A stretch of 64,000 bases of DNA, taken from assembly GCA_965112155.1 (NCBI GenBank), contig OZ218101.1. One strand, written 5' to 3'. Of the stretch, positions 5,101 to 16,900 are shown in pieces. The number at the start of each line of letters is the position of its first letter. The stretch's first letter is position 1. The DNA is from Podarcis liolepis. Its lineage: Eukaryota. The translations under genes were made by a program, and so were the position numbers. The notes beneath the pieces are model-generated. The model was not told the DNA's origin. It did not search any database and worked only from the letters and a program-made list of their open reading frames with translations.

Positions 5101-5639
5101 AAAAAGGAGAAATAAGGACAATGTGGCAAAAACTCTTCTTTCTCTAGTTCCCTTTAAATGCCCAGGACAGTCAAAATTTTACTAGACATTCACAAAAGTT
5201 AATTAATAGCTATGCACAGACCTCCAACTGTGCCAAATTCTGGGGGAGTTAATCACTACTGTTTTGCACTAAAAATTAACTTCCCTTGGCCAACTATGTA
5301 AATATATTACTGTCCTGGAAGATTTTGGAAGACTTGTCTGGTAATTGCTTGACCCTTCCTAGTAAACTGAAAAGACAAGACAGTTGCAGCCAATTTCAAA
5401 TGTGAAAAGAGATATATGATCCTTAATAGTGATTCTATCTTGTCTCCCATGCTTTGAAACTGCTAGGCACAGACATGCAGGGTTATGAGGGGAAGCACTG
5501 CCAGTTTTCTTGCCATCTGAATCAGGAGAGGCAGTAGATGTACTGTGGGCAGTGACAGACTGAACAAGGGCCAATAAACTATGATGGAACCCTGATAAGC
5601 TGAAGGTACTAGGGACACATACTTCTCATGTCCAGGAAA

Positions 5640-6200
5640 CGGAAAGACAGCCAGATTTGGATCGTGTAGCACCCCTGCTGAAGGAGCAGCTACATAGCGT
5701 AGGGTTTCTCCTTGGTTCACTTTTGTTGGAGGTTCAGATTGTGGTAGCAAAGAGCATCTCTTCCCAGCTATGGCCCTTCAAAGAACAAGACAACCTGCTA
5801 TCAGCTACCTGGGTTCTGATGATTTCATTCAGATTATTGCAGTTTGCCTATGTGGCGCTGCACTCAAAAACAAACTGGAAACTACAACTACTGCAGAATG
5901 TGTCTGCCAAGTTATTAAGTAGGGCAGTGATATATGACCTGGTATCTCTGATCCTAAAAGTTCTGCATTGGCTGCCTCTGTACTACTGGGTTTCAAGGTG
6001 TTGGCAACTGTTTGTAGAGCCGTAAAAGACTCAAGGTCCAAATATCTGCAGGATTGCCTCCTCATTAAAATTGGGGGTGATGAGAGAGCCAGAGGACTCT
6101 GCTTCTGATCCCTGCCAGAATTCATGGTGAGAAGGTGCAGAAAGGCCTTCTCTGTGGTGGAAACACAGCTTTGGAATGATCTTACCCTAGATTTTTTATT
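5640..6200 (+). mobile_element. Degenerate L2-like LINE fragment
   Basis: Translation KLQLLQNVSAKLL..LHWLP resembles the L2 RT C-terminus; boundaries approximate. Confidence 0.65.
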
Positions 6201-10379: not shown

Positions 10380-10990
10380 AAAGGAGGCGCTGTAGAATCC
10401 GACGCATCCTACGTTTCTTAGCTTCAGACCATTCAGCTCCGGCAGCAAACCCGGAAGTGAGCGGGCGTCACGTCCGGCGGTTCCCCGTCACGTGACTGCC
10501 TTAGAAACTGTGGAATATGGCGGCGCCCGTGTCTCCGCCGTTGGTGGCGGAAGAAGGGCCGGCGAAAGTGAGGTAAGGAGGGCTCTGCGGAAGGGTCTGG
10601 TCCCCCTTATGGGGAGCTTCCCGCACGGAGGTGGAACCGGAGGTGGCGCGCGCTCGCTCGCTCGCTCATACGCTCGTCTCAGCTCCCGGTTCCCACACGT
10701 GGCGCTTTCGGGGATGAGGAAGCGCCACACAACCCCTCCCCCCCCCGACCCAAGCGTAAGCTGGGCTGCTCCTGCTTCTGGTAGTGGAAGGTTGAGCTGG
10801 GCTTCATAAGGGCGGGAAGGTTTCTGCAGGAGCCGCTGGAAAGCCTGACATGCTGCGCGTGCTTCAGGTGCTGCTTAGCTCCGAATGGGTGGGATTAAAG
10901 TGTACCTGGGGGAAAGCCATGAGGCAGGCAGATGTCATTTGTTGTGATGTGAAGGAAGGGGGGGGGGCGCCGCGGGGAACGTATAGGTAG
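10380..10990 (+). promoter_or_regulatory. ZRSR2 CpG-island promoter with ETS/GABP (CCGGAAGT 10451-10458), palindromic E-box GTCACGTGAC (10487-10496) and YY1-like ATGGCGGC at the start codon
   Basis: CpG-rich, TATA-less, housekeeping-type motifs directly upstream of the ATG. Confidence 0.75.
10517..10572 (+). CDS. ZRSR2: ZRSR2 exon 1 (MAAPVSPPLVAEEGPAKVS)
   Basis: ATG GCG GCG; donor AG|GTAAGG. Confidence 0.85.
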
Positions 10991-13900
10991 GTGGTGACTT
11001 TTGAAGCATCGCTATGGCTTGAAGCGAATCCAAAACCCTTAATGCTTAGTGAAATTGCAAAATCGTTAAGCCTTTATAGAGAAAGGGTCACGGATCCGAT
11101 ACAAGAAAGCGAGAAAAATAACTGTCCCTTTTATGTGGATGCCGTTAGATCTTTGGTATGCAATTAAAAAGACACCTGAGACTATGCCAACTGTTGCAAA
11201 CTCAACAGTAAAAAAGTGTTAAAGGAGTACAGTACAGTAACGTCTTCTTAAGGATTGGCACTGGGAAGTTTGGTACATGTTAAAACAAAGACATTGTACT
11301 TCTATACAGTGGTACCTTGGGTTACATATGCTTCAGGTTACATACGCCACTAACCCAGAAATAGTACCTCGGGTTAAGAACTTTGCATCAGGCTGAGAAC
11401 AGAAATCGTATTCTGGTGGCGCGGCAGCAGCAGGAGGCCCCATTAGCTAAAGTGGTGCTTCAGGTTAAGAACAGTTTCTGGTTAAGAACGGACCTCTGGA
11501 ATGAATTAAGTACTTAACCCGAGGTACCACTGTAGTTGGTTGGGGAACTGCTGTTGAAACATTTCTTAGACTTCATAATATGTATACATTTTGAACTAGA
11601 AATTGTATAGAACTGACAATCTGTGCCCAGTTTTTCTTTCTTTTGTTTATTATTCGTTTAGTATTTTCCTCCATTTCTTGGTTGGAATAATAAGCTTGCA
11701 TTCTTTCTTTTTTCCAAAAAATATTTTGTGGCAAAATATTAAAACAAGTAAATTTAAGTGGTTGCAATTCAACTTTAATATTAATGGCTGCAATCCCAGC
11801 AGCCTTTGAACTTTGAATAAATATGAATAGGATTTTGACATAAAAGAATCAGTTTACAGGGCAATCTCACCCATGTCTTCACCGAAGTCCCACTGGGTTT
11901 GTTGTGATATACTTACCAGTTTGCATTTCTTAGTGCAGAAAGTATTGATCTGATGTGTGATCTTTCCTATTCTAATTAATTCAAGAGGGTTCTGGGGGCT
12001 TCTGTGTGTGAAAGAAAAAAGCAGGTGGTTCGTGATGTTTGGGTTATTCCTTCAGAGAAGCTGAGTACAGCTGGCTTAAATTCTTATCTCTTCTGTCAAG
12101 GTAATGCTGACTACAAAAATAGGCCAGGAGGAGCCCGGGTTTCACTTTCTCTTTCTATCTCTTTTCCTTCTGGTGTGGTGTTCTGTACATAGTATGCTTG
12201 GTGTTAAGGTTTAGACTTATAAGTTATTGTAAGTTTAAGTTAAGTCTGCTGCAACTGGATTTCTTATGGACTACATCCAATCCTGGATGTAGGATTTGTG
12301 ACCATTATGCTCATTTGCCTTCAGTAGCAGTAAAGCTCTGCTAGATGAAATAATTGTCTCTGGTCTATTTTTGAGAAATTCTGCAACATGTTTAAGTTTT
12401 TACTTGGCTAGCTATACATCGGAGTTCTGCTCTGGATCATATTGAGTAGAATTCTATGACAATACTATCAGAAAAAATGACATTTGTTTGTTTTAATCTA
12501 ATAAGAAAACATTGTTATAAATGTTTGTATGTTCAACACTTGAGAAATCCTAGTTGACTGTTAGCTGGCCAATTACTACAGAAACAAAGAAGAATCTTTT
12601 TTCCATTTTCAGCCACAAAAAGTACAGAGCACTTTTGAAGAAAGAGAAACGGAAGAAAAAGAGACAAGCACTAGCAAGATTGAGAGATTCAGGTAAAAGC
12701 TAAGTTGATGAATGGCACAGATTACTTGTGAAATATGAGCTAAATTTCAGCTCTCAGAAGATGGTTGTTATTGGTATTCAGAAGTGTTTAAAAATGTTGT
12801 TTTAGATTGAAAAGAATAGGTAATTGTTTTTCATTACTTGTCAACAAGGCTGCAGCCTCTTCATCTGATCATAGGTTGGGAAGTGTACCGTATTTTTTGC
12901 ACCATAACACTCACTTTTTTCCTCCTAGAAAGTAAGGGGAAATGTCTGTGCATGTTATGGAGGAAATGCCTACGGGTGGCATGCCTACGGATTTTCCTCC
13001 TCTAAAAACTACGTGCGTGTTATGGTCGGGTGCGTGTTATAGAGCGAAAAATACGGTAATTCATGACTGTGGCAATCTTGAGAACATAGGCTCTATGCAT
13101 GCACTGAAGACTGCCTTGGACCTTAGATTGTGTAGAATGCAGTGGTTTGCCTCATGGCAAGGGTAAGCTATCTATGTTATATATTTAAAACGAGGTACCC
13201 TTTTTTCTCTTCAGAAAAAGGAGAGAAAGATGAACAGGTTTCTGAAAAGCTAGAAGATGACGACCTAGATGATGAAGAAAAACAACTCGAAGAGGAAAGG
13301 TAAATTAAAATTATATTTAATTGGCAGCTCTACTCTATGCATATTTACCGTATTTTTCGCCCCATAAGACGCACCGGCCCATAAGACGCACCTAGATTTT
13401 TGGGGGGGAAATAAAGGAAAAAAAATTTATTTCCCCCCCAGGTGCGCTGCGCTACACCAGGAGCTTGGGGCGTGCGGAGCTCAGCGCGCCCCAAGCTTCT
13501 GCGTGCAGGCAAGGTCTCCGCTAGCGTCGGAGAGCCGGGCGCCTCTCCCAGGGCTAGCGGACTCCTGCGCTAATCCAGAAGCTTGGGGCAAGCTGAGGTC
13601 AGCGCGCCCCAAGCTTCTGCGTGCCGGCAAGCAGTCCGCTAGCCCTGGGAGAGCCGCGGGGCTCTCCCAGGGCTAGCGGATCGCTGCGCTATACCAGGAG
13701 CTTGGGGCGTGCTGAGCTCAGTGCGCCCCAAGCTTCTAGGTGCGCGCAAGCAGTCCGCTGCCGCCCCAAGCCTGGCGCACCCGGCAGGAGGTCCCACCGG
13801 GTGCGCGAGGCTTGGGGCGGCAGCGGACTGCTTGCGTGCACCTAGAAGCTAGCAGTCCGCTGCCGCCCCAAGCCTGGCGCACCCGGTGGGACCTCCTGCC

Positions 13901-16900
13901 GGGTGCGCCAGGCTTGGGGCGGCAGCGGACTGCTAGCTTCTAGGTGCGCGCAAGCAGTCCGCTGCCGCCCCAAGCCTCGCGCACCCCCTGCCGGGTGCGC
14001 CAGGCTTGGGGCGGCAGCGGACTGCTTGCGCGCACCTAGAAGCTAGCAGTCCGCTGCCGCCCCAAGCCTGGCGCACCCGGTGGGACCTCCTGCGGGTGCG
14101 CCAGGCTTGGGGCGGCAGCGGACTGCTAGCTTCTAGGTGCGCGCAAGCAGTCCGCTGCCGCCCCAAGCCTCGCGCACCCCCTGCCGGGTGCGCCAGGCTT
14201 GGGGCGGCAGCGGACTGCTTGCGCGCACCTAGAAGCTAGCAGTCCGCTGCCGCCCCAAGCCTCGCGCACCCGGTGGGACCTCCTGCGGGTGCGCCAGGCT
14301 TGGGGCGGCAGCGGACTGCTAGCTTCTAGGTGCGCGCAAGCAGTCCGCTGCCGCCCCAAGCCTCGCGCACCCCCTGCCGGGTGCGCCAGGCTTGGGGCGG
14401 CAGCGGACTGCTTGCGTGCACCTAGAAGCTAGCAGTCCGCTGCCGCCCCAAGCCTCGCGCACCCGGTGGGACCTCCTGCGGGTGCGCCAGGCTTGGGGCG
14501 GCAGCGGACTGCTAGCTTCTAGGTGCGCGCAAGCAGTCCGCTGCCGCCCCAAGCCTCGCGCACCCCCTGCCGGGTGCGCCAGGCTTGGGGCGGCAGCGGA
14601 CTGCTTGCGCGCACCTAGAAGCTAGCAGTCCGCTGCCGCCCCAAGCCTCGCGCACCCGGTGGGACCTCCTGCGGGTGCGCCAGGCTTGGGGCGGCAGCGG
14701 ACTGCTTGCGCGCACCTAGAAGCTAGCAGTCCGCTGCCGCCCCAAGCCTCGCGCACCCGCAGGAGGTCCCACCGGGTGCGCCAGGCTTGGGGCGGCAGCG
14801 GACTCCTTGCGCGCACCTAGAAGCTAGCAGTCCGCTGCCGCCCCAAGCCTGGAGCACCCGGTGGGACCTCCTGCAGGTGCGCCAGGCTTGGGGCGGCAGC
14901 GGACTGCTAGCTTCTAGGTGCGCGCAAGCAGTCCGCTGCCGCCCCAAGCCTCGCGCACCCGGTGGGACCTCCTGCCGGGTGCGCGAGGCTTGCAGACACT
15001 CGCCAGAAGCAGGGGGAGCCCTCCCGAGGGCTCCCCGTGCTTCGGGCGACAGGCTGCCGCCCCAAGCCTCGCGCACCCGGTGGGACCTCCTGCCGAGGGC
15101 GCGAGGCTTGCAGGCTTTCGCCCCATAAGACGCACCCCCGATTTCCTCTTCATTTTTGGAGAGGAAAAAGTGCGTCTTATGGGGCGAAAAATACGGTACT
15201 TAGAATAAAGTTCCAGTGGCTGATATTCAATGAAATGTGATGGAACAAGAGGATGCCCCTATGATATATTAACATTGCTTAGCTAGCTCAATAGACCAAA
15301 TGCAAAGGTGGTGGGTTGGATCCAGACTTTACTTCCACCTTCTTGTTGGCAGAGGTAGGGTGACTTTTGCCAATTCCGTTCTCCCCTTCCAGCCCACTGC
15401 TGTTGTGCAAGTGAAGTGTAAAGTTGCAGTGTTTAATTGCCTGTTTTAGGCCATAGTCCAAAACTTTGAGGAATTACTCTGCTAAATAGTCTTGAGGCTG
15501 CAACCTTATTCATAGTTATCTAGGGATACTCTCCATTGAACATAGTGCTTTAAATGCCAAGTAAACATGTATAAGTTAGCACTGTATGAATTGGAGCCTG
15601 TGCCCCCTAGCTCTTCTGAGGCCTTTCTTTAGAGGTCCGCCTTTGAAGATTAGGTGAGCAACTACACAAGAGAGATCCCTGGAATTCTATCCCCAGGTTG
15701 CTTAGTCTGACACCATCATTATTACCTTTTAGACACCAGGCCATGTTTCCCCCTGGGTGCCCAATCTTATTAGTAATTAGCTTATATGGTTTAGCCATAT
15801 GGCTGCTACTTTACTGCTGTGCTTTTGCTATTTTAAACAGTACTTAATTTGAATATTACTATTTTAAATAGAAAGGCAGAATTATTATTTTTTTAAGAAA
15901 TAAAAACATAGTAAGTTTGATGACATTCAGTGATAACCCAGGATTCATCGGATTCTATTTGCAGGCAGAGGCTTCATGAGGAGTGGTTGCTGCGAGAAGA
16001 AAGGGCACAAGAAGCTTTTAAGATCAGGAAAGCAAAAGAAGAAGCAGCAAGAAAACGTCAAGAGGAGGAAGAGGTGCAGTATATGCTTTGACTACCTTTT
16101 TGGAGCAGACATTCTAAACATAAAAATAATTACTGAGGTCTTTATTAAAAAAACAACACCACCAAAAAGCAATGGTTGTGTGAGAGGACTTCTCTCTCCA
16201 GCCACCCATCACCTCCATCTGTCTCTGCTGGAAAACCCTGCAACCTGCTGGTGCAGGGTTGCTGGAGGAGCTGCAGGGGGGAAATGAGAACCAATTCTGT
16301 CAGAGGTGACTTTTCCACTGGCAGATGGACAGTGTTAGATTTCACACCTTCATTTTACCTTTGACTAATTTTGGAAAACACAGCACTAAAGTATAGTGCT
16401 TAAGGCTGGCTTATTTCTGGGAAAGTTTTCATCGATTGTTGGGAGGCTGATTTTAAATGATGAGGGCAAAGTTGGACTTTTAAGGCTCGTTCAGTTCTGT
16501 GTTAACTGTAATCTGCAATGAAGGGGGGGCGGGAAGAAGTTAACACACACCTAATGACCTATGTTGCTTTCTTCAGTATCTCAAAAAAAGTAGTAGATAG
16601 GTAGCCGTGTTGGTCTGCCATAGTCAAAATAAAAAAAATCCTTCCAGTAGCACCTTAAAGACCAACTAAGTTAGTTCTTGGTATGAGCTTTCGTGTGCAT
16701 GCACACTTCTTCAGATACACAAAAAAAGTAAGTGGCAAATTAGTTTACATTTATCACTTATTGGTTAAAGCAAGTAGCAACTAAAATTATTTTATTTGTT
16801 CAGCCTTCATGGAGATATTTAGCATAATGCCAGTCTCTGTTTGTTTTTTTAAAGCAAAGAATAAAAGAAGAATGGGAGGAACAGCAAAGGAAAGAGCAAG

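Follow-up and report, generated by a model that had tools for sequence, protein, structure and literature searches.

Alternating inverted arms within a young TA-inserting transposon family of Podarcis liolepis: likely origin by inverted triplication and likely growth mainly head to tail

We analyzed a 64,000-nt stretch of the Podarcis liolepis genome (assembly GCA_965112155.1, contig OZ218101.1), hereafter the window, whose positions serve as coordinates wherever no other locus is named. The window contains a gene that, judged from its encoded protein, is ZRSR2-like: the protein matches the U2AF small subunit (E value, 3e-4) and has two zf-CCCH matches, one above and one below the Pfam cut-off. 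The name ZRSR2 was given to it in the original prediction for this DNA and agrees with what is generally known of that gene. Coding exons start at positions 10518, 12617, 13216, and 15965, with the third (13216 to 13299) and the fourth (15965 to 16073, covered by RNA reads) both on the plus strand. The intervening intron 3 (13300 to 15964) contains the whole of a 1,849-bp element (13348 to 15196) that has perfect 27-bp terminal inverted repeats (TIRs; 13348 to 13374 on the plus strand and 15170 to 15196) and is flanked by TA on both sides (13346 to 13347 and 15197 to 15198). As originally predicted, 48 nt separate the splice donor from the element, yet the alternating array is not reached until 451 nt past the donor; the distance from the element to the acceptor is 768 nt. 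All open reading frames (ORFs) within the element are repeat-derived and none encodes a transposase, and the element holds no G-quadruplex-like runs, no Rfam matches and, in a simple scan, no donor-like or acceptor-like motifs.

The left end with its subterminal repeat (13348 to 13440) is followed by 2.7 copies of a 119-bp two-hairpin module (13445 to 13759, as called by Tandem Repeats Finder [TRF]), the alternating array (13751 to 14957), a partial closing arm plus a right 118-bp module that itself includes a diverged arm and loop (14958 to 15115), and the right end (15116 to 15196, minus strand; the left end and both modules are on the plus strand), which is itself a hairpin and is closed by the right TIR. 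The array consists of 25 arms (13 forward, 12 inverted) that alternate in orientation with zero exceptions, each with a 29-bp core extending up to 33 bp. Arms are separated by two kinds of loops, termed a (leading from a forward to an inverted arm) and b (from an inverted to a forward arm), and both orientations of each are present. Four arms make up a 193-bp higher-order unit that is inherited and common to many copies of the element (13731 to 14960, plus strand; TRF period 193, 6.3 copies, 94% matches). The original description of about 25 alternating arms with central 193-bp units between the intact TIRs of a DNA transposon is thus accurate, and folding gave the strong structure that it anticipated: 1,000 nt of the array has a predicted energy of -1132.9 kcal/mol, versus -566 kcal/mol for 20 shuffles (z = -85), and inverted arms reach 384 nt at 91% complementarity.

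The element belongs to a family. Searches with its left and right ends recovered 63 distinct loci, 58 of which hold complete copies; these were picked by their likeness to the window copy. Exact matches to the junction numbered 602 (the control gave 0), and a less biased census took all 53 loci on the two largest contigs that are marked by the first 96 of them; 49 of these loci proved to be complete and 434 to 2,446 bp in length. Extrapolating at 53 loci per 96 matches yields about 330 copies genome-wide. The two sets combine to 91 complete copies (58 plus 33), every one of which has TA on both sides. The left 100 bases match at 100% identity in 16 places and at 99% in 24 more (40 scored matches), and the mean divergence in the fixed parts is 0.95% among 45 copies. 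Copies of the 58-member set span 552 to 2,466 bp and 1 to 37 arms; their neighbouring arm pairs alternate in 958 of 958 cases, and 56 of the 58 have distinct loop codes. Across the 91 complete copies, the number of inverted arms ranges from 0 to 18, a strong variation in array size between copies, and within the census the median is 3, with none in 11 copies and 12 or more in only 4. The window copy, with its 12 inverted arms, is long, but longer ones exist. Because element size varies from 434 to 2,466 bp and is miniature only in one-arm forms, the family lacks the small, uniform size of a strict MITE (miniature inverted-repeat transposable element); it is a nonautonomous, MITE-like TIR element of the pogo type.

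The array is a trait of this family, neither special to the host gene nor born at the locus. It is not peculiar to ZRSR2: the same 193-bp unit occurs in 33 of the 58 copies and in 12 of the 49 complete census copies, and a separate lineage of copies carries plain 148-bp tandem units. The palindromes at the edges, which had been read as diverged ancestral remains, are standard modules about 99% alike among sister copies: in the 89 of 91 copies that could be parsed, the left module is present 1 to 9 times (3 times in 61) and the right module 1 to 5 times (twice in 71). Nor is the idea of a satellite arising within the transposon supported. The assembly contains 2,442 exact arm matches (control, 0), which fit about 330 elements with a few arms each and so rule out a large satellite in the assembly; 49 of the 53 census loci have both element ends and the other 4 have one, the longest array has 37 arms, and no free-standing long arrays lacking element ends were seen in assembled sequence. 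Separately, one three-arm copy (L003) has a long terminal repeat-like insert inside its left module, and a related insert lies near the putative autonomous partner described below (L149, about 5410 to 5975).

That partner, a 3,935-bp element at L149:178-4112, has TA ends, a 27-bp TIR, and an open 453-amino-acid (aa) ORF with BrkDBD, HTH_Tnp_Tc5, and DDE_1 domains and a DD35D triad (the second D is separated from the third by 35 residues). Available portions of the literature describe Passer elements by DD35D, BrkDBD plus HTH_Tnp_Tc5, a transposase of 400 to 500 aa, a TIR under 30 bp, and a length of 1.6 to 4.0 kb (PMC7386202, PMC9976928). By these features of domain, triad, TIR, TA, and size, the L149 element is classified, from its sequence, as a Passer-type (pogo) transposon. 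Its ends are identical to those of the window family in 91 of 96 (left) and 78 of 83 (right) aligned columns, so that an L149-type transposase likely mobilizes the family, although the window element, unlike Passer elements, has no transposase of its own. No matching TIR was present in the 3.5-kb stretches of the 30 best DDE_1 loci, and L149 was the one region among 15 lower-ranked DDE_1 regions to show a nearly identical left end. Many near-identical DDE_1 copies with different ends and open frames of 575 to 646 aa (G000) apparently represent another young pogo-type family.

Upstream of its transposase gene, the partner carries an array of its own, composed of 12.4 copies of a 119-bp two-hairpin unit, which has only an 11-base loop motif in common with the window array. 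A sister MITE (L209:1148-2604) holds 9.7 direct copies of the same 119-bp unit, with the arrays of both being 96 to 98% uniform, and three copies of another Passer-type subfamily (L151:2865-3566, L152:6832-7071, and L153:2773-3047) possess 112- to 114-bp GC-rich arrays, again upstream of the transposase. Since partner, sister MITE, and all three of these copies carry them, hairpin-rich arrays are common in the lineage; alternation is what the family of the window element adds. The accessible text of the two Passer reports mentions no internal arrays, and the word "tandem" is absent from that of PMC9976928.

How alternation could have begun is suggested by the shortest copies. In three one-arm copies (L015, L016, and L027), the arm is followed first by loop a and then by part of an inverted arm, so that an 18-bp inverted repeat already encloses the loop; we infer that one-arm copies preceded the longer forms and did not arise from them by deletion. 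A forward-inverted-forward model constructed from L027 reproduces the three-arm copy L003 with 2 mismatches in 252 positions and the first three arms of the window with 4 in 236, whereas direct duplication alone leaves 31 mismatches in either case. The model places the first switch within the 18-bp inverted repeat, the inverted part measures 66 to 84 nt, and the first loop should be flipped, as it is in 47 of 54 arrays. A first fit to L166 found nothing within 6 mismatches, because the left context of this copy comes from another module. In the long-loop type, the second switch falls in the left hairpin. Judged from these alignments, the array likely began when a hairpin that was already present underwent a small inverted triplication.

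With respect to the timing of subsequent changes, arrays differ even among the most similar copies: 25 pairs of copies are separated by no more than one substitution across some 640 fixed bases, yet in none of them do the two array codes coincide, and two pairs with zero fixed-part substitutions have 23 versus 11 and 23 versus 9 arms. The 62 arrays examined contain 73 private point changes, of which 61 are single, 10 lie in same-direction repeats, and 2 lie in opposite ones. Because private changes are mostly single and arm number does not track divergence (rho = -0.13, p = 0.41, n = 45), most remodelling likely took place at or before insertion, which would link it to transposition. The strongest competitor, which we regard as a minority possibility, is that, once inserted, arrays lengthen and shorten chiefly where they lie, in the manner of ordinary minisatellites and independently of transposition. 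The 10 changes in same-direction repeats speak for this account, and the 96 to 98% uniform arrays of the autonomous element and sister MITE also agree with it; however, the 61 single changes, the failure of arm number to rise with divergence, and the gap of 12 to 14 arms already separating copies with identical fixed parts are all contrary to it. One insertion (L031) lies within a duplicated region and might have allowed an array to be compared in place, but all four flank paralogues (L199 to L202) are empty and provide no second copy, although they do supply further examples of the empty site.

The direction of growth can be read from loops that bear deletions (counted over the 91 complete copies) and from the relative orientation of neighbouring loops (counted over the 58-copy set). 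A 10-bp-deleted loop is forward in 114 cases and inverted in 4 (in 3 copies), and a 1-bp-deleted loop is forward in 107 and inverted in 8 (in 6 copies, including the window). Neighbouring a loops have the same direction in 311 of 416 cases, and neighbouring b loops have opposite directions in 366 of 420. We read the latter as one flip inherited within the 193-bp unit, and growth would likely have proceeded mainly by head-to-tail duplication of a four-arm unit holding that old flip, with new flips being rarer. Iterated fold-back synthesis, in which most arms would arise in a rolling-hairpin-like manner and each block would mirror the previous one, is improbable. It would account for strict arm alternation, for the opposite b loops, for a private change repeated in the opposite direction, and for three copies (L006, L129, and L170) in which whole array blocks are inverted, marked loops included. 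But the a loops mostly agree in direction, the marked loops stay forward, and one lineage is made of plain 148-bp tandem units; moreover, in 108 of 114 cases the two arms flanking the 10-bp-deleted loop differ at a marker base, a mismatch between paired arms that copying by fold-back would not keep. In the parvovirus rolling-hairpin model, both loop types flip between neighbours, which the a loops of this family generally do not. Hairpin-driven template switching, originally proposed for the array as a whole, is therefore retained for the first inverted arm and for occasional flips, but not for every arm.

The window insertion is itself recent. In sequencing runs from four related organisms (A, B, C, and D), single-copy contigs match the window up to position 13348 in all four and continue with 435 to 2,578 letters unlike the element. 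The right-side junction was examined for X1 and X8 among runs X1, X2, X6, and X8; contigs from both resume at 15197 with a three-letter overlap and one TA, as expected of an empty site. The empty TA site in relatives marks the insertion as recent; the runs diverge from the window in many positions and speak to its age, not to variation within the population from which the window derives. Two other insertions in the same gene were noted: in intron 2, a second element of 171 bp whose TIRs are related (12886 to 13058), which is skipped in runs X1, X8, and X6 and whose two ends are both entered by X2 contigs, and a 138-bp high-copy insertion in intron 4 (16581 to 16720; 11 letters fit either side), which is absent from X1 and X8.

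RNA runs X23 and X24 (about 12% of reads used) derive from organism C and cover exons 4 and 5 at a depth of about 7, with no reads in 15257 to 15936. As the DNA run of this organism (X8) lacks the insertion, they say nothing on its effect on splicing. These runs also contain reads of the family's right edge (14985 to 15120; depth, 5 to 7; mostly one strand) whose source copies are unplaceable; given that such family-specific reads are present, some copy is transcribed in organism C. Among listed changed places, A>G plus T>C changes account for 25 of 51 and 30 of 68 in RNA; the corresponding counts for DNA contigs are 14 of 51 and 21 of 70. Other repeats are present in this stretch, however, the samples differ, and editing is inseparable here from copy variation. 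Were the paired TIRs to fold the element out of the pre-mRNA, the ancestral 814-nt intron would remain, which argues for a small effect on splicing. That the insertion owes its retention to a role of its double-stranded RNA in tuning ZRSR2 splicing or in supplying editing or small-RNA pathways is very unlikely: the predicted fold is highly stable and TIR pairing would start 48 nt past the donor, but the insertion is young and absent from all four related runs, its array is of the standard family type, and neither splice-like motifs nor Rfam matches turned up in it. It is hardly credible that the array is an assembly or fold-back read artefact, as the original prediction had allowed, for although such arrays are hard to assemble and the exact unit number may be off, the flanks are unique and not mirrored, the loops are asymmetric, the same marked units are found on many chromosomes, and the window array contains three private point changes, all single.

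We therefore consider it quite probable that the element is a recent copy of a young TA-inserting family whose array was seeded by triplication and lengthened mainly head to tail, a Passer-type (pogo) transposase being the probable mover. The process would have started from a one-arm copy of the kind still present, whose arm forms the 18-bp inverted repeat around loop a. Two template switches would then have copied the segment backwards, generating the observed succession: an arm, the loop in flipped orientation, an inverted arm, a new loop (b), and a further arm. Slippage or misaligned repair synthesis may have duplicated units of 102, 148, or 193 bp in the same direction, and rarer switches, or recombination between opposite arms, could have flipped a loop or a block, both in keeping with the patterns seen. 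Most of this remodelling would have occurred at or before insertion, for example, during repair synthesis in cut-and-paste transposition, and a minority later. Once transcribed as part of the host pre-mRNA, the element would pair with itself, so that an intron of roughly the ancestral length remained, with probably little effect on splicing.

Several observations count against parts of this account. The opposite b loops, taken alone, resemble fold-back, and six of the private changes occur more than once in their array, such that remodelling is not limited to transposition. The triplication fits the long-loop type less well (8 mismatches of 298 for L043 and 23 of 298 for L048), and the second switch has 11 bp of homology in long-loop L043 but none in the short-loop type. 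Of 13 transposase regions examined, a single one has ends like those of the family, the 58-copy set is biased toward close relatives and long arrays, and the array is known from the assembly, with no spanning reads seen.

Transposons with long self-complementary repeats of variable length are familiar from the foldback elements FB, Galileo, and Tetris. Those elements have direct repeats within two long TIRs, whereas the TIRs of the window family are 27 bp long and its inversions are internal and local. Other parallels, as described in the portions of these sources available to us, are the tandem-repeat-carrying MITEs miDNA4 (Tc1/mariner, Xenopus) and Xmix/Xstir (reviewed in PMC12628747 and PMC9659126) and DTC84 (PMC3879986), in which, as in the window family, the monomer occurs from one to many times, variants are ordered, the unit contains palindromes, and copies are nearly all unique. 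The arrays of these MITEs are described there as head-to-tail, in contrast to the alternating arms, flipping loops, and likely triplication-derived unit of the window family, for which, also unlike them, no long TIR-free array was seen. Small inverted triplications (DUP/IN/DUP) are likewise known, with a switch at a palindrome, an average size of 160 bp, and slippage proposed as a later change, in the accessible text of PMC13334657 and an Aspergillus preprint (10.1101/2025.01.14.632981). The window family shares with them the forward-inverted-forward layout, the palindrome switch, and a similar scale; they are characterized in the same text as rare, unstable, and prone to removal, whereas its product is inherited, expanded to as many as 18 inverted arms, and spread by transposition. 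A literature search of partial coverage, with repeat databases and supplements outside its scope, found no mobile family with both alternating arms and flipping loops. Tandem-repeat MITEs and inverted triplications at palindromes are thus established phenomena, and it is their combination in one mobile family that, within the scope of this search, appears to be new.

Long near-perfect inverted repeats are usually unstable. In this family, the product of an apparent inverted triplication has persisted, has been multiplied, and has been dispersed by a young transposon, and one-arm, three-arm, and long forms coexist, which supplies a natural series for telling template switching from direct duplication. 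A few hundred sites predicted to form long duplexes or to be prone to cruciforms have been seeded in a single genome, although the host gene is an ordinary case until an effect is measured. More tentatively, and with the odds against it, the Passer elements of this lineage may use the hairpin array as a working part, with the transposition cycle driving template switching and the roughly 330 copies constituting a heritable flip-flop record. If true, such a record would show how often small inverted triplications, loop inversions, and slippage arise in a vertebrate germline.

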